A stretch of DNA of 64,000 nucleotides, from assembly GCA_013374855.1 (NCBI GenBank), contig CP055308.1, positions 16,358 to 80,357 on the forward strand, written 5' to 3'. The notes under the pieces are model-generated. The model saw nothing but the letters and a program-made list of their open reading frames with translations. It was not told the origin of the DNA and did not search any database. Shown here one piece after another: positions 3,368 through 53,679 of this stretch. Every line of letters begins with the position of its first letter. The stretch's first letter is position 1. This stretch comes from Candidatus Woesebacteria bacterium. GTDB taxonomy: Bacteria > Patescibacteriota > Microgenomatia > UBA8517. Position numbers and translations under genes: made by a program.

Positions 3368-4678
3368 TCAAAAATCAACTGGAAATTCACTGCAAAGTTT
3401 CCTAACTTCCTTCGCAATATTCAAGAGGAATCTATCTTTCCTTATCCTATCCCTAAATCTTTTTAAAAATTCAGATCTTTCCTTAGGTCTTTCTGGCAAT
3501 TTGTGAGGTTTAACATAACCAACTACCTTTGTAATCAAGCCAGCAATTAATTCCATTTCTTTTTCTTTCATTCCCCTTGTCGTCAATGCTGGTGTGCCAA
3601 GACGAATCCCCGAAGGATAAAAAGGAGGCATTGTATCATTTGGAACAGAATTCCTGTTAACAATAATACCAGCTACCTCAAGTGATTCGGCAACCACATT
3701 TCCAGAAAGCCCAATCGGTCTTAAATCAACCACCATAAGATGACTTTCAGTTCCACCACTAACAAGCTTCAGACCTCCATTCTTCAATCCCTTAGCTAAA
3801 ACCTTTGCATTATTAACAACCTGTAAGGCGTATTTTCTAAATTTAGAGCTATCTGCTTCAATCAAAGCTTGTAGGATCCCCGCTGTTGTATTGTTGTGAG
3901 GTCCACCCTGAAGACCAGGAAAAACAGCCCTATCAATTTTAGAAGCAACACCAGCATCTTTAACCAAACCTTTCTTTGTAACCATAACCATAGCTCCTCT
4001 AGGTCCCCTTAATGTCTTATGTGTTGTTGTTGTAATAATATGAGCAAATTCAACAGGAGACGGATAAACACCAGCCAGAACCAGACCGCTAACATGAGAT
4101 ATATCAGCCACAAACCAAGCTTCAATTTTATCTGCAATTTGTGCAAAACGTTTCCAATTAATAATAAGAGGATAGGAGGTTGTACCAATTATTATCAACT
4201 TAGGCTTAATTTTCAAAATCAGCTTCTCTGCTTCATCATAATCTATAACACCATTATCATCCGTCCCAAATTGATAAGACTTAAAAAACTTCCCAGAAAA
4301 AGTAATATCAGGATGCCCATGAGTCAAATGCCCTCCGGATGATAACTTAAGACTTGAAATTCTATCTCCACGATTTAAAAGAGCAAATAATACTGCATCA
4401 TTGGCAGGAGAACCAGAATAAGGCTGAACATTAACATGCTCTACCTCAAAAAGCTTCTTGGCTAAATCAACCGCCGCTTTTTCAATCCTATCAACAATCT
4501 CATTTCCCTGATAATACCTCTTACCAGGATAGCCTTCAGAATATTTATTCATCAAGACAGAACCAACAGCTTCTCTTACCGCCCTTGAGGTGTAATTTTC
4601 AGAAGGAATCATCATCAAAGTTTCCTTTTGCCTTTTTTCCTCTTGTTTTATAAGTTCCGATAAACTAATTCTTTTCAT
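3368..4678 (-). CDS. glyA: serine hydroxymethyltransferase
   Basis: 436 aa; PLP-lysine region TTTTHKTLRGPRGAMV and GGHLTHGHP motif. Confidence 0.95.
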   Translation of the reverse strand: MKRISLSELIKQEEKRQKETLMMIPSENYTSRAVREAVGSVLMNKYSEGYPGKRYYQGNEIVDRIEKAAVDLAKKLFEVEHVNVQPYSGSPANDAVLFALLNRGDRISSLKLSSGGHLTHGHPDITFSGKFFKSYQFGTDDNGVIDYDEAEKLILKIKPKLIIIGTTSYPLIINWKRFAQIADKIEAWFVADISHVSGLVLAGVYPSPVEFAHIITTTTHKTLRGPRGAMVMVTKKGLVKDAGVASKIDRAVFPGLQGGPHNNTTAGILQALIEADSSKFRKYALQVVNNAKVLAKGLKNGGLKLVSGGTESHLMVVDLRPIGLSGNVVAESLEVAGIIVNRNSVPNDTMPPFYPSGIRLGTPALTTRGMKEKEMELIAGLITKVVGYVKPHKLPERPKERSEFLKRFRDRIRKDRFLLNIAKEVRKLCSEFPVDF

Positions 4679-6898: not shown

Positions 6899-7998
6899 AT
6901 TCTCTTATAACTTCCTCCCCCCAAACTTTTAACCAAACCCTTTATTTCCATAAGCGAAAGTTTAGCTGAAATCAAAGAAACTTCCAACCCCAAAATTCTG
7001 GAAATCTCATCAAGATGCAGAGATTCCCTAGATATAATCTCAAGTATCTTGCTTTCCACTTCATCTGTCGGAGCTACTTTCAAAGCTTTATTTTTATCCA
7101 ATCTAAACTGCAAATCCAATTCTTCCAGAACATCAGCAGGAGAAAATGCTATTCTCGCACCATTTTTAATCAAAAATTCAGAAGCTCCAGACATTGGAGA
7201 GGTAATTTGGCCAGGAACTGCAAAAACAACTCTTCCTTGTTCAGCAGCATGACTTGCTGTTAATAATGTTCCACTTTTCTTTTCGCCTTCTACAACAAGA
7301 ACAGCTTTCGAAAGTCCAGATATTATTCTATTGCGAAAAGCAAAATTAGGTCGCAAGGCTGGATATCCTAAGGGGAATTCAGAAACCAAAGCACCGTTTT
7401 TTGCTATTTCCAAAGCTAGCATTCTGTTTTCCGGAGGATAAATAACATCAATACCTGATCCCAAGACTGCTATTGTCCTTCCACCTGACTCAAGAGCTAT
7501 TTTGTGAGCAATAGTATCAATACCGCGAGCCAATCCTGAAACTATAGTAATACCAACATTTGAAAATTCCGAAGAGAAAACTTCAGTCACTTCTTTTCCA
7601 TAAGATGTCATTTTGCGGGAACCAACTATAGCTATCGCATTGCAATCCTCATCTTGTATCTCTCCTAAAACATAAATAACCAAAGGTGCCGAATCTATTT
7701 CCAGTAAATTTTTAGGGTAATCACTATCAGATTTGACAAAAACTTTAATTTTCAATTTATCTAACTTCCCTAAGTACTCCCGAGGAGAAAATTTTTTTCT
7801 ATAACAATCAAAATCAAAGACCAGTTTATCTCTCAATCCCACAGAAACCAAAGAAGAATTACTAGCATCCCAGACCTTCTTGGCACTACCAAAATAAGAG
7901 AGCAGAAGTGAAAGACGAGCCGGTCCAAAAGGAAAAAATGAAGAAAGACAAATTAGATATTCTCTCTCTGTCATTGAGCAGTTTTTTCTGAAAACCAA
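6895..7998 (-). CDS. dprA: DNA processing protein A (Smf/DprA)
   Basis: 367 aa; DprA Rossmann core GLARGIDTIAHKIALESGGRTIAVLGSGIDVIYPPEN. Confidence 0.9.
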   Translation of the reverse strand: MVFRKNCSMTEREYLICLSSFFPFGPARLSLLLSYFGSAKKVWDASNSSLVSVGLRDKLVFDFDCYRKKFSPREYLGKLDKLKIKVFVKSDSDYPKNLLEIDSAPLVIYVLGEIQDEDCNAIAIVGSRKMTSYGKEVTEVFSSEFSNVGITIVSGLARGIDTIAHKIALESGGRTIAVLGSGIDVIYPPENRMLALEIAKNGALVSEFPLGYPALRPNFAFRNRIISGLSKAVLVVEGEKKSGTLLTASHAAEQGRVVFAVPGQITSPMSGASEFLIKNGARIAFSPADVLEELDLQFRLDKNKALKVAPTDEVESKILEIISRESLHLDEISRILGLEVSLISAKLSLMEIKGLVKSLGGGSYKRI

Positions 7999-10821: not shown

Positions 10822-12810
10822 ATGGAAAAACATTTCACCAAAGCCTTATTTATTTCGTATCTTACTCTCTTATTTTTTCTTCCAATAACAGTAGTTCCCA
10901 TAACTTCTGAGATATTTGAGTTTAACAAAATCGTTCTTGTTTATCTGGCAACTGCAGTTATAACCTCACTTTGGCTGGCAAGAATGATATCTGAAAAAAA
11001 AATTATCTTCAAAAAAACAATCCTTGATTTGCCAATTTTAGCATTCATAATCGCAAATCTTGCTTCTACCACATTTTCTATTGACCGAAATATGTCTATT
11101 TTTGGATATTATTCAAGATTCAATGGTGGAGTTCTTTCTCTAATATCATATTCACTCCTTTATTTTGCTTTTGTCTCAAACTTAGACAAAAAGCAAACAA
11201 TCTTGATACTAAAAACAATAGTTGCCTCAACTATTCTTGTCTTAACCTATGCAATTCTCCAAAAACTAGGGATAGACAAAAACATTTGGATTCAGGATGT
11301 GCAAGCAAGAGTTTTTTCAACTTTCGGTCAGCCAAATTGGCTTGCTGCTTTTTTAGTCATAACCTTTCCAGTAGTTATTGCTTTTTCTTTCAAAGAACTA
11401 AAAAAACAAAAATATTACCTTGCTCTGTCTCTCATGTACTTTCTTGTGATTTTGTTTACAAAATCAAGATCGGGTCTGATTGGTTTTATGGTTGCCAACA
11501 CAACATTTTGGATTAAATCAGCAATTTGTCACAAAGAAGCAGTAAAACCAAAATTAATTATCACATATCACCTTTTGCTTGCATTAATAATCATTATCAT
11601 AGGAACTCCTTGGACCCCTTCAATCGCAAAATTCTTCCAAAGAAAAAGCACAATTCAAGAAACCAAAACTACTACATCGCTTGAAACAGGTGGAACAGAA
11701 TCGGGAGAAATAAGAAAGATAGTCTGGAAAGGAGCGATCGAGATTTGGAGAAATAGCCCTATTTTTGGTACAGGCCCTGAAACTTTTGCTCTTTCCTATT
11801 TTAAATTCAAACCAAAAGAACATAATCTAACATCAGAATGGGATTTTGTTTACAATAAAGCACATAATGAATATCTAAACTATCTTGCAAACACCGGAGT
11901 TATTGGATTTTTCTCTTATCTTCTAATAATATCAGTTTCTTTGATCATAATGGCAAAAACTAGCAAAAAAGAAAATCTCCTTAAAAGTGCTCTTCTATCC
12001 GGCTATCTTGGATTCCTTATTACAAATATATTTGGTTTTTCCGTTGTTACAACAAACCTTTTATTCTTCCTCTTCCCTGCTTTTGCCACAACTATTGACA
12101 AGGAACCAGAAAAAGAAAAAAAAGAAACTAGAAGCAATCCCTTACTTTTAGTAATATTGCTAATCTCAAGTCTGCTTATTATCCAAATAATAAAATATTG
12201 GCAATCGGATATTCTGTACAATCAGGGAAAAAGTCTAAACAAAAGCAAGAATTACTTTGAGGCAAAAAACAACCTAGAAGAGGCTATTAAGAAAAGCCCA
12301 TACCAGCCCATTTATTACGAAGAGATATCGCGGTCAAGTATTGGAATGGCTCTTGTTGCTTATGAACAAAAAAAAGAAAATCTAGTAACCCAATTTGTAA
12401 ACGATGCAATAAAACAAATCAATACTGCTATAAAAATATCCCCCAATAATTTCTTCTTCAGAAAAACTTATTCTTCCATAGTAATTCAGCTTTCACTAAT
12501 TGACCCAAATTATCAAGATGACGCCGAAAAAGCTTTGGCCAACCTTTCAGAATTTGCACCTACTGATCCTAAAATCTACTACAACTTAGGACTTCTTTAT
12601 GCAAGAAAAGGAGAGTGGCAAAAAGCAAAAGAGATGCTGACAAAAAGCATTGATCTTAAGCCAACCTACAAAGAACCAAGATTGGCTATTGCTACTGTTT
12701 ACAAAAAGTTAAGTGAAAAGAAAAAAGCCCAAGAAGAGCTTCTATTTATTTTAGAAAAAATAGACCCCAACGACACTATTGCAAAAAGAGAGTTGGAAGA
12801 AACTAAATAG
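10822..12810 (+). CDS. polytopic membrane protein with O-antigen ligase/polymerase (Wzy_C) domain fused to C-terminal TPR repeats
   Basis: 662 aa; about 10 predicted TM helices, Wzy_C-like TKSRSGLIGF motif, C-terminal TPR-like repeats (YYNLGLLYARKGEWQKAKEML). Confidence 0.75.
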   Translation: MEKHFTKALFISYLTLLFFLPITVVPITSEIFEFNKIVLVYLATAVITSLWLARMISEKKIIFKKTILDLPILAFIIANLASTTFSIDRNMSIFGYYSRFNGGVLSLISYSLLYFAFVSNLDKKQTILILKTIVASTILVLTYAILQKLGIDKNIWIQDVQARVFSTFGQPNWLAAFLVITFPVVIAFSFKELKKQKYYLALSLMYFLVILFTKSRSGLIGFMVANTTFWIKSAICHKEAVKPKLIITYHLLLALIIIIIGTPWTPSIAKFFQRKSTIQETKTTTSLETGGTESGEIRKIVWKGAIEIWRNSPIFGTGPETFALSYFKFKPKEHNLTSEWDFVYNKAHNEYLNYLANTGVIGFFSYLLIISVSLIIMAKTSKKENLLKSALLSGYLGFLITNIFGFSVVTTNLLFFLFPAFATTIDKEPEKEKKETRSNPLLLVILLISSLLIIQIIKYWQSDILYNQGKSLNKSKNYFEAKNNLEEAIKKSPYQPIYYEEISRSSIGMALVAYEQKKENLVTQFVNDAIKQINTAIKISPNNFFFRKTYSSIVIQLSLIDPNYQDDAEKALANLSEFAPTDPKIYYNLGLLYARKGEWQKAKEMLTKSIDLKPTYKEPRLAIATVYKKLSEKKKAQEELLFILEKIDPNDTIAKRELEETK

Positions 12811-13363: not shown

Positions 13364-14325
13364 AAAGTACAAAAATTGTCTTCTTTGGAACACCAGATTA
13401 TGTAGTTCCTATTCTTGAGGTGCTTTACAAGTACTTTAAGACAAAAGAAAACGAAAATCCAATAGCAGCTGTTGCAACACAACCCCCATCTCCAGCTGGA
13501 CGAGAAAAAAAACTTACCTACTCTCCAGTTGACAAATGGGCATATAGCAAAAAAATACCAGTTTTTTATGATCTGAAAAAACTTAAAGAGAGTGATATTG
13601 AAAAACAATTAGGAATACTAGCCTCTTTCAGTAAAATAATTCCCAAAGAAGTAATTGATATTTTTCCAAAAGGAATCTTGAATATTCACCCCTCTTTGCT
13701 TCCCAAATACCGCGGCGCATCTCCTGTACAAGCTGCAATTGCATCAGGAGATAAAGAAACCGGAGTTTCAATCATTAAACTTGACAACATTCTTGATCAT
13801 GGAGATATAGTTTGTCAATTCAAAGAGAAAATAGAAGAAAATGACACTACAGAAACTTTAAGAAAAAGGCTTTTTGAGAAAAGTGCTCAAGTCTTGCTCG
13901 AACTTCTGCCTGCTTATTTAGATGGAAAAATAAATCTCAAAAAACAGAACGACAAAGAAGCTGTTTTTTGCAAAGAAATTAAAAAAGACTGGGCTTTTAT
14001 TGATTCCTCTATTCTTGCTCCACTCTTGCAAGGAAAATCTCCAAGAGAAAAAACTATAGAAATCCAATTTATAGTAAACAAAAAAATAAGCGCAAATTCA
14101 AAAAATGTAAATAATCTGATTAGAGCTATGTACCCATGGCCATGTGTTTGGACTTTAGTTAGGCTTACACCACAAGATTCCAATCCGAAAAGACTCAAAA
14201 TAATCAAAAGCCACCTAGAAGAAAAAAGATTAGTTTTAGACGAAGTGCAACTTGAAGGAAAAAATAAAGTAAGCTGGGAACAATTCAGAGAGGGCTATCC
14301 CCAAAACAGCCTTCTAGATTATTGA
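13342..14325 (+). CDS. fmt: methionyl-tRNA formyltransferase
   Basis: 327 aa; formyltransferase motif NIHPSLLPKYRGASPVQAAI; def-fmt pairing; ends with TGA. Confidence 0.9.
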   Translation: MGKSRNIKSTKIVFFGTPDYVVPILEVLYKYFKTKENENPIAAVATQPPSPAGREKKLTYSPVDKWAYSKKIPVFYDLKKLKESDIEKQLGILASFSKIIPKEVIDIFPKGILNIHPSLLPKYRGASPVQAAIASGDKETGVSIIKLDNILDHGDIVCQFKEKIEENDTTETLRKRLFEKSAQVLLELLPAYLDGKINLKKQNDKEAVFCKEIKKDWAFIDSSILAPLLQGKSPREKTIEIQFIVNKKISANSKNVNNLIRAMYPWPCVWTLVRLTPQDSNPKRLKIIKSHLEEKRLVLDEVQLEGKNKVSWEQFREGYPQNSLLDY

Positions 14326-16994: not shown

Positions 16995-17195
16995 ATGGGG
17001 CCCGGAGGTAAAGACCCAGACGACAATAACACAACTGATTCGACCGCCAAAACAAGTAGTCTACCGTGGGATGTTGCAACTTGGTACGCCACAAGAAATG
17101 GTTATACAAAATCAGACGCTGAGGTAGACTGTGAAGATTCTAAAGAAGGAGTTGAGGCAGCTTGGAAAGCCGCCCGAGAAGATGCGTTAAATTGA
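16995..17195 (+). CDS. small acidic protein of unknown function (66 aa) in its own transcription unit
   Basis: Consensus promoter, strong SD, and a hairpin plus T-run terminator immediately downstream. No recognisable domain. Confidence 0.55.
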   Translation: MGPGGKDPDDNNTTDSTAKTSSLPWDVATWYATRNGYTKSDAEVDCEDSKEGVEAAWKAAREDALN

Positions 17196-17330: not shown

Positions 17331-18365
17331 ATGAAAAATAAAAACAATAAAGAAAAAATAACACAAAATACACTATACAAGGCTACTATGTACGACGCAG
17401 GTTTGGAATACTTAAAAATTATAAAATTAATTCCCAAAGAAAAGGCAAAAAGTATAAGAAAAATATTAATAACAAATGATTCTTTCACTAATAAGGTTGC
17501 AGGATTCCAAAGATACGCCAAAGACCTAAAAGAAGCAGAAGCAGTGTTTGCCAATTTAATCAAAATTTTAAATAAGGCTTCCAAATACCAAGGATATAAA
17601 AATTTCGCTGAAAAAATAGCCGCAGATGCCAATATACCAAATAACATCCTTAAAAACGTTATTAAGGACTCAAAGATATTGATTGATTTCCTTAATAAGA
17701 AAGTGAAATTTAAGAAAAACATACCGAAAGAATACTGGACAGAACACTATACTCAATGTGCAAGCCACTCCACCCAAACAGAATATAAAATCCCGGAAGA
17801 AATTTATTCACTTCTAAAAAAATATGATCCCGATATAGAAAAGCTAACCAAAAAGATAAAAGTAAAGGAAATAAAAGGTGATGAAAACCCTTTTTGCAGG
17901 TATGACAAAGAAAAAGACATGTGTAAAATTTTTTGTTCAAAAGGAACCCAAGCCTTACCTGGTGTTTTTACTTTTCTCCACGAATTAGGACACGCCAAAC
18001 AACATCTAACTTCAAAAAAGGAAATAGAAATATCTGGATACGAAAAGGAAAAGTATGCTCACAAATTTTCAATAAATCTTGCAGAAAAAATATTCCCCAA
18101 AGAAGAATATTTGGCATATCTATGGTTTAGAGCAAAAGAAATAATAGTAAATGGAGTGTTTGAATATATCATCTACTCCAAGCAACCGAACAAACCAAGT
18201 AAGACCTATGCAGAATTGCAAAATTTGTTTCTTGGTAAAAAAGATCAAAAAGAAAACTACTACTACTTAGTGAACAAAAACATCATTCACAAAAACGGGG
18301 AATACCTTACAAGTGCCGCTTCATTTATCCAGGCATCAAAAGAAACATATCTAAAACAATCTTAA
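17331..18365 (+). CDS. hypothetical protein with HExxH motif (putative zinc metallopeptidase-like)
   Basis: 344 aa, Lys-rich; single HELGH motif (VFTFLHELGHAKQHL) with Glu residues 20-30 aa downstream. No secure family assignment. Confidence 0.5.
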   Translation: MKNKNNKEKITQNTLYKATMYDAGLEYLKIIKLIPKEKAKSIRKILITNDSFTNKVAGFQRYAKDLKEAEAVFANLIKILNKASKYQGYKNFAEKIAADANIPNNILKNVIKDSKILIDFLNKKVKFKKNIPKEYWTEHYTQCASHSTQTEYKIPEEIYSLLKKYDPDIEKLTKKIKVKEIKGDENPFCRYDKEKDMCKIFCSKGTQALPGVFTFLHELGHAKQHLTSKKEIEISGYEKEKYAHKFSINLAEKIFPKEEYLAYLWFRAKEIIVNGVFEYIIYSKQPNKPSKTYAELQNLFLGKKDQKENYYYLVNKNIIHKNGEYLTSAASFIQASKETYLKQS

Positions 18366-19327: not shown

Positions 19328-20137
19328 ATGGGAAAAACAAAAACAGTATTTGTTACAGGTCAGGAAGAAGCCTTAAGCGGCGAGGAGAAATATAAATTAA
19401 GGCTAAAGAAAAAAGCAGAAAAAGAGGCAATAAAGAAAGCCAAAATAGAAGGAGTAGGACTAAAAGGTGGAGAAAGAATCAAGGTTGTAGCAAGCGAGGA
19501 GATTATAACGGCAGAGATTCCAAAAGAAGAAAAAGCAAAAAAAGAAATAAAAATAAAAAAAAGAGGCAAAAAATACATTTCCGCCAAACAAAAAATAGAC
19601 AAATCCAAAGAATACGAAATAAACGAGGCTATTAAGCTTGTTAAAGAAACATCTTATTCCTCATTTGACGGAACAATGGAAGCCCATTTTGTTGTCAAAA
19701 AACAAGGGCTGTCTGTATCTGTTACACTTCCCCATTCAACAGGGAAAACAAAAAAGATAGAAATAGCAAACGAGGAAACTATTAAAAAACTAGAAAAAGG
19801 AATTATAGACTTTGATGTTCTTTTAGCAACCCCTGATATGATGCCTAAGCTTTTGCCCTTTGCGAGACTTCTTGGTCCAAAAGGACTTCTCCCCAACCCA
19901 AAGGCAGGAACTCTAATTAAAGATAAAGAAGAAGCTAAAAACTTCTCAATCGATAAGATAAACATCAAAACAGAAAAAGAAGCCCCTTTAATTCATACTA
20001 TTTTCGGCAAAGTGAGTATGGATGATACAAAACTTGAGGAAAATCTCAAAAGTTTAATCGAGGCTGTTGGAGCAAGGCAAATAACAAAGCTTTTTATCAA
20101 ATCAACAATGAGTCCGTCGGTAAGAGTGAAAATTTAA
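19328..20137 (+). CDS. rplA: 50S ribosomal protein L1 with Lys/Glu-rich N-terminal extension
   Basis: 269 aa; L1 core from KSKEYEINEAIKLVKE… onward; preceded by about 75 aa of K/E-rich low-complexity sequence. Confidence 0.9.
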   Translation: MGKTKTVFVTGQEEALSGEEKYKLRLKKKAEKEAIKKAKIEGVGLKGGERIKVVASEEIITAEIPKEEKAKKEIKIKKRGKKYISAKQKIDKSKEYEINEAIKLVKETSYSSFDGTMEAHFVVKKQGLSVSVTLPHSTGKTKKIEIANEETIKKLEKGIIDFDVLLATPDMMPKLLPFARLLGPKGLLPNPKAGTLIKDKEEAKNFSIDKINIKTEKEAPLIHTIFGKVSMDDTKLEENLKSLIEAVGARQITKLFIKSTMSPSVRVKI

Positions 20138-21616: not shown

Positions 21617-21652
21617 AACAATCTAAATTATAACAATTACACAAAAGTAATT

Positions 21653-21709
21653 GTGTAGGGTACACAACCTACTTGAAACCGAGAAACATCTCTATTGTGT
21701 ACCCTACAC
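21653..21709. repeat. perfect 15-bp inverted repeat (stem GTGTAGGGTACACAA) with 27-nt loop
   Basis: Read directly: GTGTAGGGTACACAA-N27-TTGTGTACCCTACAC. Each arm is itself internally palindromic (GTGTA-GGG-TACAC). Confidence 0.8.
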
Positions 21710-21737
21710 TTTAACACACGCAAGAGCTAAAAACAAC

Positions 21738-21959
21738 TCACTTAACATCCCAGCTTTCGGTGTGATAGTTGTAGTGAATTTCGGTGTCTCCCAACCGCTG
21801 GCCATAATGGTAATCAGTCACATTCCCTTCACGATCCACATTGTAGCTTTCTCAGTGAGTAATCCCGTCCCCTTCGGTCCACCAATATGTCCAGTGCTGA
21901 GTTCCATCAGGATTGTTTCTCACCGACTGTCCACTCTTCACATCACCAGGTCCTGACAT
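21738..21959 (-). pseudogene. degenerate copy of the small YD-motif ORF found intact at 52897-53175; interrupted by an in-frame TGA
   Basis: Minus-strand frame reads MSGPGDVKSGQSVRNNPDGTQHWTYWWTEGDGITH*ESYNVDREGNVTDYHYGQRLGDTEIHYNYHTESWDVK*. It lies immediately downstream of the same about 300-nt repeat that precedes the intact 92-aa ORF. Confidence 0.45.
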
Positions 21960-22295
21960 CTCACACTCTCCTTCTGCTGACTATCAGCAGTTACTAAAGG
22001 ACAGATACAGTGATTTTGCTTAGGCTTTGTAAGACTTTTCTTCTTTGGAAATTTTCTTCTCTTCAGTGACCTCTTGTTTTTTAGCTTATCTTCCTCTCGC
22101 TTTTGAGAGTTAGCCCAAGAGAATATAGTTTGAAGAGAAAGAATCACCCCTTGAAGAAGAAGTCCTTACACCCCAAGCCTGTTAAAGTGCGACAAGCTCT
22201 TGCGTGCTTTGACGGGGATGATATCAGAAGAAGAAGAAGAAAAAGTCAAGACCTTGCAATCCTAACTTTGGATCTTGACTTTGGCAACCGCAAAA
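21960..22295. repeat. copy 1 of an about 300-bp repeated element (about 75% identical to 53180-53454)
   Basis: Aligned by eye: …ctgactatcagcag…ttttgcttagg…cagtgacc…cccaagagaatatagtttgaagagaaaga…cttgaagaagaag…caagcctgt…gatatcagaagaagaag…gtcaagac… is shared in the same order and orientation. Confidence 0.8.
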
Positions 22296-22389
22296 ACATA
22301 TAATAGCCTGTTCCCTAAGAAAGTGTGTATTTGGGTCAACCCAAAGTAAATCGCACCGAGGGCAAAAATAAAATTACCTAAAGTTTGTT

Positions 22390-22418
22390 TTTGCGCCTTG
22401 GTGAGGCGCTTTTTTATT
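22390..22418 (+). terminator. terminator/attenuator-like hairpin in the rplJ leader
   Basis: GCGCC-TTGGTGA-GGCGC followed by TTTTTTATT. A 21-bp DNA palindrome GGACAGGGTCCGACCCTGTCC follows at 22426-22446, 12 nt before the rplJ start. Confidence 0.4.
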
Positions 22419-22457
22419 GTAACGGACAGGGTCCGACCCTGTCCAGGAAACAAGAGT

Positions 22458-50814: not shown

Positions 50815-51879
50815 TTAATAGTTTCGGTTAGTAATAAAATCAATTATTGTTAAAATCTGCATGCGGTATGGGTTTTTGGAAAGAAATCCAAGCTCACTTT
50901 CAAAATACTCCGTCGCTTTATCTTTCCATTCCAAGGCAAGCTTACGAGCATAATCAATCGAACCATATTCCTTCATTTTCTCAACAACCCACAAAACCTC
51001 ATCTTTTGTCTTTTCTTCACGCGTTTTTTCAAGAACACTTTTCAGTTTTTTCCTATCTACCTGATTTGCTTTTTCAAAAAGATGAGCAAGCAAAACAGTG
51101 ATTTTACCCTCATAAATGTCCCCGGCAAATTCTTTTCTGCCACTAAAATCTCCTGTCACGTCCAAAACATCATCTGTCAATTGAAACGCACGCCCCAACA
51201 AAACTCCAAACTGGGCAAGTTTCTCAAGTTGAAAATCGTTTGCTCCAGCAACAATTGCCCCAAGCCTCATCGGACAGGCTATCGTATAATAGGACGTTTT
51301 TCCATCGGCAACAAAGTACCAGTCTGATACATTAAATCGCATTTTTTTATCTCTTGTCCATTTTATCTCAGTCATCTGTCCTAAGGTTGTCCTTGAAAGT
51401 TGAACATAAAACTCGTTAGCAAGTGCAAAAGTTTTCTTTTCCCCTAAAACTTCTCTTGAATCAAGAAGAACCTTCCACATAATATTATGGAGAGCATCGC
51501 CCGCGTTTACCGCCAACTCGTTCCCATAAATCCTGTGCAGAGCCGGCAGACCCCGTCTTTTTGGTGAATCATCCTCAACATCATCATGAATCAAAAGCCA
51601 ATCCTCTGATATTTGCATTGCACAAGCAGGTGGTAAAAGGTCACCAAGTTTTACCCCCATTGCCTGGCCAGTTAAACACAAAAGCGCAGGCCGCAGATAT
51701 TTTCCTTTTCTTTTTGGATAATCCGAAACCACCTGCCAGAAGAAATCCTCTTCTCTTTTGCATTTGCGCGGCACTTTAAATGGAGTAGGAAAATCAGGGG
51801 TTTGGAGATATTTTTCGATTCTTGGGAATATACGTTTTTGATAATATTGCAAAATTTTCTCTGGCGACTTTGGTTTCAT
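50815..51879 (-). CDS. trans-polyprenyl diphosphate synthase (FPP/GGPP synthase family)
   Basis: 354 aa; first Asp-rich motif LIHDDVEDD and second FQLTDDVLD. Confidence 0.85.
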   Translation of the reverse strand: MKPKSPEKILQYYQKRIFPRIEKYLQTPDFPTPFKVPRKCKREEDFFWQVVSDYPKRKGKYLRPALLCLTGQAMGVKLGDLLPPACAMQISEDWLLIHDDVEDDSPKRRGLPALHRIYGNELAVNAGDALHNIMWKVLLDSREVLGEKKTFALANEFYVQLSRTTLGQMTEIKWTRDKKMRFNVSDWYFVADGKTSYYTIACPMRLGAIVAGANDFQLEKLAQFGVLLGRAFQLTDDVLDVTGDFSGRKEFAGDIYEGKITVLLAHLFEKANQVDRKKLKSVLEKTREEKTKDEVLWVVEKMKEYGSIDYARKLALEWKDKATEYFESELGFLSKNPYRMQILTIIDFITNRNY

Positions 51880-52750: not shown

Positions 52751-52788
52751 ACATTTAAATTATACCAATTAAAATCTACACAATAAAA

Positions 52789-52859
52789 AAGATAAAGCTG
52801 GAGAATGATTCTCTATCGTGGTGGGGCACGAGTACTGGATAAACCAGCAGCTTTATCTT
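52789..52859. repeat. long hairpin (12-bp stem AAGATAAAGCTG with 3-nt bulge, about 40-nt loop) immediately downstream of the 92-aa ORF
   Basis: Left arm AAGATAAAGCTGG, right arm CCAGCAGCTTTATCTT; positional analogue of the 21653-21709 hairpin. Confidence 0.6.
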
Positions 52860-52896
52860 AAACTCCCACTATTTAGTTGTTGAACCAGTAGAAGAG

Positions 52897-53175
52897 CTAC
52901 TTTTCCTGTTTACCAGTGTTGAAATTGTAGCGCTCAACTGGTCTACCATTGGGGTCGTACCTTGAAATAGTCAATCCCTCTGGATGTCGGTGGAGATGGG
53001 TTTCCCAACCAGTTTCTAAATCCTTGATAACCTTAACCACCTCTCCTGGACGCGGCCCATTTGACAGGTAACTTTCAACTAGGTCTTTATACTGGCTGAA
53101 ACCGTAACGATTGCTCCACCCATTAGGCACCTGCCCCTTATCCTTATCACCCATTTCGCACACTCCTCTAGCCAA
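52897..53175 (-). CDS. small protein (92 aa) with YD/RHS-core-end-like motif
   Basis: …HPEGLTISRYDPNGRPVERYNF resembles the DPxGL…RYYDPxxGRF signature that closes RHS/YD-repeat cores; SD AGGAGTG upstream; preceded by the 300-nt repeat leader. Confidence 0.5.
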   Translation of the reverse strand: MARGVCEMGDKDKGQVPNGWSNRYGFSQYKDLVESYLSNGPRPGEVVKVIKDLETGWETHLHRHPEGLTISRYDPNGRPVERYNFNTGKQEK

Positions 53176-53179
53176 AAAA

Positions 53180-53454
53180 GTCGGCTGACTACTAAAGTGA
53201 TACGGATTGGTTTTGCTTGGAAAACAAGGTTTCTCTTCTTTGGGGTTTTTCTTTTCTCTCAGTGACCTTTTTTTAATTTTGGCTAGTATTCCTCCCGCTT
53301 TTGGGAGTCAGCCCACAAGAATAGTGGTTTGAAGAGAAAGATTACCCTCTTGAAGAAGAAAACACTTGCACCAAGCCTGTCAAGGTACAAGCAGCTTTTG
53401 CCTGCTTTGGAAGCAATGATATCAGAAGACAGAAGAAGAAGTCAAGACTCTGCC
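53180..53454. repeat. copy 2 of the about 300-bp repeated element
   Basis: See the paired feature at 21960-22295. Confidence 0.8.
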
Positions 53455-53679
53455 CTACTCTTGTGAAGGCTGGATGCCAAGAAGCCAAAGAACAGCTTCT
53501 TTCTTATAGCGACGGTCACCGCGAGAGTTGATTCTTATTGGAACGAGTTTTCCTCTTTTGCCCCATCTTTTAATTGTAAGAGGAGAAACGCGCAACAAAT
53601 CTGCTACCTCTCGAACGGTAAGTAAATCAGGCAAATCCTCAAGCCTTATTTTCTTTCTTTTCCTTTTAACCTCATCCAT
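53455..53679 (-). CDS. excisionase/MerR-type helix-turn-helix DNA-binding protein (74 aa)
   Basis: LTVREVADLLRVSPLTIKRWGKRGKLVPIRI is the HTH_17/excisionase-family signature; basic N-terminus. Confidence 0.65.
   Translation of the reverse strand: MDEVKRKRKKIRLEDLPDLLTVREVADLLRVSPLTIKRWGKRGKLVPIRINSRGDRRYKKEAVLWLLGIQPSQE

Follow-up and report, generated by a model that had tools for sequence, protein, structure and literature searches.

In Escherichia coli, the paralogous mRNAs of the cspA family, which encode small stress proteins, share a 5' leader of ∼160 nucleotides (nt). Here we describe a family of structured leaders found in a 64,000-nt stretch of DNA from a Candidatus Woesebacteria bacterium (contig CP055308.1 of GCA_013374855.1, positions 16,358 to 80,357; 37% GC), referred to below as the window. 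Two minus-strand loci of the window, locus 1 and locus 2, each consist of a promoter, a long structured leader, a small open reading frame (ORF), and a terminal hairpin, an arrangement proposed in an earlier note on this sequence and supported by the present analysis. As in the cspA family, the leader is long and structured, is common to paralogous genes for proteins of ∼70 amino acids (aa), is proposed here to act in cis on stability and/or translation, and is better conserved than would be expected of noncoding DNA. Unlike the cspA case, the proteins belong to several unrelated families without a cold-shock domain (no Pfam match), and the leaders themselves have no similarity to those of cspA in sequence or structure.

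The type I toxin-antitoxin repeat loci of E. coli, LDR (ldr/rdl), SIB (ibs/sib), and hok/sok, are also units of ∼0.5 kb that are multicopy and sometimes tandem, with a promoter, a folded 5' untranslated region (UTR), a small ORF, and a terminator; the ORFs described here differ in being hydrophilic and mutually unrelated, and no antisense RNA gene is evident. Like the orphan cis-regulatory motifs and riboswitch candidates of Rfam, the element has a covarying fold directly 5' of a Shine-Dalgarno (SD) sequence and an ORF, with a segment that may sequester the SD; unlike them, it is an unbranched rod rather than a multistem junction, its internal loops are variable, and it has no match in Rfam 15. 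6S RNA is similarly rod-like, with internal loops and a length of ∼170 nt; in contrast to it, the element is multicopy, is fused to an SD and ORF, lacks a conserved central bubble, and is not matched by the Rfam 6S models. Finally, one study places GAA repeats upstream of the promoters of the Mycoplasma gallisepticum vlhA genes (PMC6258824). The likeness to such variable families of Mycoplasma extends to a reduced genome, a conserved 5' region, and a GAA/TTC promoter repeat that differs in number between copies, and the differences are that the repeats here comprise 3 to 6 units, lie between the -35 and -10 elements, did not vary in length among four samples of one locus, and precede genes for non-lipoprotein products.

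Repeated promoter and leader

A blastn search of the window with one copy aligned locus 1 (22260-21955) and locus 2 (53450-53150) as minus-strand copies with 78.4% identity over 222 bp (E = 3e-43), which bears out the two collinear copies in the same orientation reported earlier. Exactly two copies were found within the 64 kb, both by an nhmmer profile and by a covariance model run with its filters off. From the -35 box to the ATG the loci are 70 to 73% identical over 300 alignment columns; in the next 230 columns, which hold the ORF, identity falls to 39%. The earlier note had recognized that identity confined to GAA/TTC runs would undermine the repeat. Identity was 74% inside homopurine/homopyrimidine runs and 68% outside them (187 columns), so the repeat is not an artifact of low complexity. 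Measured from the inferred start site, the leader is ∼252 to 255 nt long, rather than the 230 nt first estimated. A template/variable repeat pair of a diversity-generating retroelement was considered as an explanation and rejected: the mismatches are not A specific (A in 18 and 17 of 78, in either copy), and the repeats are noncoding.

Every copy opens at (C)TTGACTT, and the upstream flanks of the copies are unrelated. The promoter-like TTGACT-(TTC)n start on the minus strand is common to all copies, as had been claimed for the two in the window, and the extended -10 element TGnTAnnnT is kept in 9 of 9. Spacing between TTGACT and the -10 element is 11 nt (one copy), 14 nt (four), 18 nt (one), or 20 nt (two) and never 17 nt; the differences are mostly whole TTC units, and the tracts contain 3 to 6 units (window spacers, 22224-22243 and 53422-53439). 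Only locus 2, with its 18-nt spacer, passed a standard sigma-70 scan. At the L015-type locus the TTC tract was identical in four samples, as judged from consensus assemblies, in which minority variants are not visible. The rplJ promoter (TTGACT-18-TATAAT, 11/12 matches) and a subthreshold match of the Rfam L10_leader model (22296-22424; 36 bits versus a gathering score of 44; E = 5.6e-4) together occupy 22275-22424 on the plus strand and stand back to back with the promoter of locus 1.

Seven further copies occur on four metagenome contigs (L015, L031, L033, and L034), giving nine copies on five independent sequences, with up to four in tandem; the pair on which the earlier note was based is therefore not the only one. 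Full-length copies (two in the window, one each on L015, L031, and L033, and three on L034) score 65 to 190 bits with covariance model R1, described below. L015 (Logan, 27.8 kb) was reached through a 153-aa neighbor protein and has a full leader adjoining tRNA-rpmG-rplK-rplA; the protein searches were otherwise nearly empty. A metagenome scan with the apical hairpin pattern yielded three true loci, L031, L033, and L034. On L034, a 29.7-kb contig, three full leaders and one mini copy lie within 6 kb in one orientation, and each leader is followed by a small ORF and then by a larger orphan gene. The mini copy is without the rod and keeps the promoter, an apical-type hairpin, and the SD; its short stem, capped by CUCC-UAAAAGC-GGGA, is located between an anti-SD-like run and the SD. 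Species-representative genome contigs, which do not include the source genome, gave chance matches only when searched with the pattern TTCTCTTCAAAC...GGTCACTGA (eight in one conserved planctomycete coding gene and two on unrelated contigs), viral contigs searched with three patterns gave random matches or none, and blastn of the whole unit against plasmid and phage records gave no match. Assemblies L016-L018, L042, L043, and L045 (position 1) stop at the same base in or just before the leader, as expected if the leader is repeated within those genomes.

Leaders and ORFs have separate histories. The L034a and L034b leaders (11757-12066 and 13995-14308, minus strand), separated by 2.2 kb, show 100% identity over a sharply bounded segment of ∼280 nt, while neither their upstream flanks nor their ORFs are related, which suggests that only the leader was recently duplicated or converted. 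L015 is a mosaic in which the first 120 nt correspond to the locus 1 leader (97 to 100% identity) and the ORF and terminator are of the locus 2 type. Overall, leader identity is 70 to 100% across pairs whose ORFs sit at background identity. The mosaics indicate recombination or gene conversion among leaders within genomes, and the compensatory changes between lineages described next indicate selection on RNA pairing in addition to recombination.

Fold and covariation of the leader RNA

The 5' UTR is ∼252 to 290 nt long and comprises a 5' hairpin, an unbranched rod of 165 nt, and one or two small hairpins, the last of them directly before the SD. The 5' hairpin is predicted in every copy, in slightly different registers. 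At locus 1 the order from 5' to 3' is 5' hairpin, rod, pyrimidine anti-SD, pre-SD hairpin, and SD AAGGAG (21968-21973). Coordinates of these and the other features of the two units are given in Table 1.

Covariance model R1 represents the rod and was built from five close copies (168 positions, 50 pairs). It detects the three divergent L034 copies at 65 to 91 bits, and its scores on the antisense strand are 20 and 17 bits in the window and at most 20 bits overall. In the alignment fitted to R1, which contains seven distinct sequences from about five independent lineages, standard pairs occupy 93.5% of the 339 pair cells, and both partners have changed in 18 of the 50 pairs. The leader, called structured in the earlier note, does have a conserved, covarying fold. 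None of 500 shuffled controls reached any of the five measures, and when the 3' partners were slid by 1 to 3 columns, pairing was only 41 to 56%. Folded singly, the rods have z scores of -5.6 to -8.3 and form the same rod in all cases; in seven of eight copies, 64 to 92% of the consensus pairs are present in the unconstrained minimum free energy (MFE) structure. The rod of locus 2 folded alone recovered 16 of 48 consensus pairs, probably owing to a one-base register shift in its TTC/GAA-rich arms.

The pair cells also favor one strand. G-U cells number 37 and A-C cells 9, and 93.5% of cells are paired on the minus strand versus 85.3% on the complement. This excess fits a structure in the minus-strand transcript, in agreement with the orientation of the promoter and of the SD and ATG. 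In the basal two thirds of the rod, the helices of the window lineage and L034 differ almost completely in sequence while pairing is kept. The apical third is nearly invariant and consists of UCUUUCUCUUCA/UGAAGAGAAGA, ACC/GGU, GGCU/AGCC, and the hairpin CUCYC-AAAAGC-GRGAG. A conserved fold with compensatory changes on the mRNA strand, directly 5' of an SD and start codon, is what would be expected of a structured cis-regulatory mRNA leader; it is seen here in the model-fitted alignment of seven distinct sequences.

None of the Rfam 15 covariance models covers the leader; the overlapping matches are weak and spurious microRNA or small-RNA hits (E = 0.18 to 3). The motif is not described in the literature searched. 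The element is a genuine, previously uncatalogued family of structured RNA leaders with a narrow known distribution. Two other leader features were rejected: a 69-aa GTG ORF within the leader (21938-22147) is interrupted in the other copies by indels of 1 and 2 nt, and pairing of GGUCACUGA with codons 2 to 4 works, on inspection of the copies, for locus 1 only.

An SD and start codon lie within 45 to 110 nt 3' of the rod in each copy. In the MFE folds of the copies, the SD forms pairs with a stretch of pyrimidines located 5' of it (UCCUUU, CACUUU, or CCUUUCUCC). The mean unpaired probability from -14 to +3 was 0.39 for the copies and 0.48 for 47 control genes (Mann-Whitney P = 0.016). No consistent attenuator terminator was found in the leaders.

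Table 1. Positions of the features of both units (window coordinates)
Feature	Position	Strand	Description
Locus 1 -35-like box TTGACT	22244..22249	-	Conservation among all copies starts abruptly here
Locus 1 (TTC)n spacer and extended -10 TGATATCAT	22218..22243	-	20-nt spacer; TG at 22225-22226, TATCAT at 22218-22223
Locus 1 5' leader	21960..22211	-	∼252 nt, inferred start site to ATG; MFE -79.9 kcal/mol, z = -3.4
Locus 1 rod hairpin domain	22014..22182	-	R1 score 183.5 bits
Locus 1 near-invariant apical hairpin	22093..22110	-	ACUCUC-AAAAGC-GAGAGG; pattern found twice in the window (0.01 chance matches expected)
Locus 1 small ORF	21738..21959	-	73 codons plus stop, cut by TGA at 21852-21854
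Locus 1 hairpin	21653..21709	-	15-bp perfect stem, 27-nt loop with small GAGA...UCUC hairpin; unit end
Locus 2 promoter	53416..53445	-	TTGACT, 18-nt spacer, TG-n-TATCAT; 10/12 consensus matches, TG present
Locus 2 5' leader	53155..53409	-	∼255 nt; SD AGAGGAG at 53163-53169
Locus 2 rod domain	53211..53380	-	R1 score 150.1 bits; apical hairpin at 53291-53308
Locus 2 ORF	52897..53154	-	85 aa; invariant HxHxH family; predicted C-terminal five-strand beta meander
Locus 2 multibranch intrinsic terminator	52781..52859	-	12-bp stem 52789-52800/52848-52859, three inner hairpins, U run

Small proteins, unit ends, and genomic setting

The small ORF of locus 2 does follow an SD, as the earlier note had it; the 92-aa length counted from a TTG did not hold. 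The most likely start is the ATG at 53154, with AGAGGAG 8 nt upstream, which gives 85 aa, the length at which homologues are called. The locus 2 protein, L015, and L001 form a first family, with ∼30 related clusters in a profile search of 1.8 billion representatives and the motif IPGF..W..PRxGE.GK(I/V)L...THLH(R/K)HPDGxTIS...RYNF(N/D)TG, in which H53, H55, and H57 are invariant. WD40 and repeat-protein matches in the same search were taken as spurious beta-strand similarity. Out of 53 codons, the L015 and L001 ORFs differ synonymously at 23 and nonsynonymously at 18, which fits purifying selection and a real ORF. An AlphaFold model of the locus 2 protein has a confident beta meander at residues 30 to 85 and a disordered N terminus, and Foldseek against the PDB returned nothing below E = 0.5 for this model.

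A second family follows the leaders of L031, L034a, and, weakly, L034c, and a third follows those of L034b, L034d, and, weakly, locus 1. The small proteins are 66 to 85 aa long, fall into at least three unrelated families, and are hydrophilic (grand average of hydropathy, -0.57 to -1.41; best 19-residue window, ≤0.68); many of the small ORFs begin with M(A/S)GPGD or MGDK. No membrane segment, signal peptide, or lipobox was found in them. Searches of Pfam, NCBIfam, and PADLOC assigned no family, and PHROG gave weak subthreshold matches only (best E = 0.0034).

Distant members of the locus 2 family are found without a leader on plasmid-like or ordinary chromosomal contigs. On Logan contigs L035, L038, and L039 they lie beside Rep_1, Replic_Relax, a DDE transposase, and GerE regulators; these plasmid-type neighbors indicate that the HxHxH family is also carried on mobile DNA in other organisms. 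A third MGPG-type ORF of the window (16995-17195, plus strand; 66 aa, beginning MGPGGKDPDDNN...) has its own promoter (TTGACA-17-TACAAT); its leader is short and plain (∼55 nt), and its terminator is simple. After it comes a gene for a 344-aa HExxH protein (17331-18365, plus strand), a homologue (E = 4e-16) of the 402-aa gene located behind a leader unit on L034. The order of small MGPG protein and then HExxH protein in both lineages raises the question of a substrate, inhibitor, or peptidase relationship.

The in-frame TGA of locus 1 (21852-21854) was confirmed, as was the claim that TGA is a genuine stop, since it terminates 14 of the 51 ORFs with 150 aa or more. One C-to-T substitution accounts for the in-frame TGA: each of four further samples (L042-L045) has CGA (Arg) at this codon and an intact 73-aa ORF, and the TGA is present only in the window and in L041, a contig of the same sample. 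Across the ORF and hairpin, only two other substitutions separate the locus 1 samples. From these comparisons the TGA reads as a strain-level nonsense mutation or polymorphism and not as long-term decay, and the description of the two loci as one intact and one decaying copy is unsupported.

The perfect 15-bp stem and 27-nt loop downstream of the locus 1 ORF were borne out by the exact arms (21653-21667 and 21695-21709; 15 nt, 100% complementary, 27 nt apart). This stem is terminator-like, with a single inner hairpin and a weak U run (CUUUUG) 6 nt beyond the stem. The multibranch layout of the locus 2 terminator recurs with other closing stems (∼9 to 13 bp, two or three inner hairpins) in L001, L015, L033, and L034b. 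A stem directly before a U run, as in an intrinsic terminator, is found at locus 2, L015, L001, L033, and L034b and in part at locus 1, and L031, L034a, and L034c have a common second type of 3' structure. Between the stop codon and terminator, at least seven units contain the motif AAC(A/U)NAAUA(G/A)(G/U) (window ∼52865-52880, minus strand; L015 ∼3569-3585; L001 322-336; L034 ∼11503, minus strand; L031; L033; L035 3247-3262); among them is L035, whose distant homologue is without the 5' leader. Genes 3' of the units have their own TATAAT 7 to 10 nt before the ATG and no SD (window ∼21617-21640 and 52751-52775, minus strand; L015 3680-3697; L001 425-441; L035 3322-3340). This placement suggests leaderless mRNAs in this lineage, and because the downstream genes have their own TATAAT, the unit of leader, ORF, and hairpin looks monocistronic.

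Locus 1 lies in a 2.1-kb minus-strand block between rplA (19328-20137, plus strand) and the rplJ promoter and L10 leader, which splits the usual rplKA-rplJL cluster; the block runs from leader, small ORF, and hairpin to orphan genes of 109, 293, and 69 aa. Upstream of locus 2 are the genes for a WecG-family glycosyltransferase and a 74-aa helix-turn-helix protein, and an orphan 153-aa gene lies downstream. The 74-aa gene (53455-53679, minus strand), of the excisionase-type MerR/HTH_17 group, ends 9 nt before the locus 2 -35 box; it is missing at the other leader loci and is therefore probably not part of the unit. The flanking orphans had no match in Pfam, NCBIfam, or PADLOC and only weak subthreshold matches in PHROGs. 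On L034, a nucleotidyltransferase/HEPN (MNT-HEPN-like) pair (7016-7826, minus strand) directly follows the four tandem units, and a polyprenyl synthetase gene lies after it on the other strand; a member of the same synthetase family is found 1 kb beyond locus 2 (50815-51879).

The suggestion that the unit is a selfish duplicating element did not find support. No transposase, integrase, terminal inverted repeats, or target-site duplications were found at the copies, and the flanks of all nine are unrelated. L020 (GCA_900174565.1, FWPU01068132.1, 800-900) comes from a relative and is the one variant without the unit; it has lost everything from the promoter through the leader and small ORF to the middle of the terminator, so that the homologue of the 153-aa gene is preceded by 9 bases with no match and the remaining 3' half of the terminator. 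The half terminator that is left marks an imprecise deletion and not a clean empty site. The related idea of a small-toxin-like module is likewise unsupported: the ORFs are hydrophilic with no membrane segment, and a consensus scan, crude as it is, predicted no antisense promoter inside either window leader.

Proposed mode of action and alternatives

These results lead us, with somewhat more confidence than doubt, to read the copies as the promoter and 5' leader of a single-gene unit whose leader would act in cis on translation and/or mRNA stability. Transcription would start a few bases after the extended -10 TGnTAnnnT, and the first 250 to 290 nt of the mRNA would fold into the 5' hairpin and the imperfect 165-nt rod. 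The pyrimidine run would pair with the SD across a small hairpin, and the transcript of the unit would end at the long-stem terminator. Translation and/or mRNA stability would then be set by the leader for any small ORF placed after it. A trans-acting factor would probably recognize the invariant apical hairpin, with temperature as an alternative trigger; the variable internal loops argue against a small-molecule pocket. Paralogous leaders in one genome would be kept alike by recombination or gene conversion.

Several points weigh against a cis-acting leader of this kind. Because the alignment behind the pair counts was fitted to the model, its pairing values are inflated, and only about five independent lineages stand behind the comparison. 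One search pattern selected for the apical hairpin, so that its invariance is partly an ascertainment effect. Occlusion of the ribosome-binding site is modest (0.39 versus 0.48), and the L033 copy, whose ORF is broken, is open at the start (0.78 unpaired). In the window copies the start region pairs with the distant 5' segment; L034 lacks this interaction, which was therefore rejected as a family feature. Homologues of the locus 2 protein occur in other organisms without the leader, so this protein does not need it.

The rod could instead be a stable noncoding RNA that is excised from the 5' UTR by a nuclease such as RNase III and acts in trans as a protein sponge or in a 6S-like manner, with the ORF merely sharing its promoter. 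A duplex of 165 nt is a plausible RNase III substrate, and such a product would account for the long near-continuous duplex, the sequence-invariant apical domain, and the presence of the rod before unrelated ORFs. We nevertheless regard it as unlikely, since every copy has an SD and start codon 45 to 110 nt after the rod, with no terminator between rod and SD, and since the Rfam 6S models give no match even at E ≤ 10. The mini copy loses the rod and keeps the SD-linked hairpin, and a housekeeping RNA would not ordinarily occur as four copies in tandem.

The mosaic leaders, and the 100% identical leaders beside unrelated ORFs, also bring to mind contingency at the level of DNA, in which the leader would be a homology block for reshuffling small proteins and slippage of the spacer TTC tract an on/off switch. 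The spacers (11 to 20 nt) vary mostly by TTC units with none at the optimal 17 nt, assemblies break inside the leader, and the vlhA GAA repeats of M. gallisepticum are a parallel (PMC6258824). This explanation appears quite improbable to us. Compensatory changes need selection on RNA pairing and are not accounted for by recombination on its own, and two different organisms, the window lineage and L034, have kept the apical domain. The TTC tracts have just 3 to 6 units, the L015-type tract was identical in four samples and is not visibly hypermutable, which makes phase variation less likely, and the proteins have no signal peptide or lipobox.

We consider it improbable that the leader is simply a constitutive cassette for stability and high expression, with end structures that protect a short mRNA from nucleases and no switch. 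Hairpins at the 5' end and before the SD, and a long-stem terminator at the 3' end, are present in every copy, and the modest occlusion of the ribosome-binding site would suit such a role; a 165-nt rod with an invariant apical domain and loop would be superfluous to it, and the third MGPG-type ORF (16995-17195) has a plain ∼55-nt leader. The idea of a selfish element that duplicates itself, or of a module akin to type I toxin-antitoxin systems, with one copy in decay, is very improbable and largely refuted. In its favor, the units are multicopy and sometimes tandem, have their own promoter, folded 5' UTR, ORF, and terminator, and lie in variable regions beside orphan genes and, on L031, a transposase fragment or, on L034, an MNT/HEPN pair. 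Against it, the ORFs of 66 to 85 aa are hydrophilic and fall into three or more unrelated families, the scan for antisense promoters predicted none, inverted terminal repeats and target duplications are absent, the L020 deletion is imprecise, the TGA is a strain-specific point mutation, and phage, plasmid, and viral-contig searches were without a match.

A wider proposal, which we put forward with considerable reserve, is that the leader and structured terminator form a portable cassette from which ultrasmall, probably symbiotic bacteria might express an exchangeable set of small hydrophilic proteins, with leaders kept alike by gene conversion, a TTC slippage switch, and a dedicated factor for the AAAAGC hairpin. 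If this were true, bacteria of the candidate phyla radiation would have a type of contingency or variation system that has so far not been described in them. The value of the putative cis-acting leader is that of a good new RNA-motif candidate rather than a new principle, and its known distribution is limited to a small number of contigs from anaerobic digesters and metagenomes. Little is charted of the structured regulatory RNAs of uncultured bacteria with small genomes, in which recognizable regulators are few. The small proteins, including the HxHxH family, are flagged by their common leader as evidently coregulated, and a covarying domain of ∼165 nt that is reused before unrelated orphan small-protein genes provides a testable handle on posttranscriptional control in these organisms.

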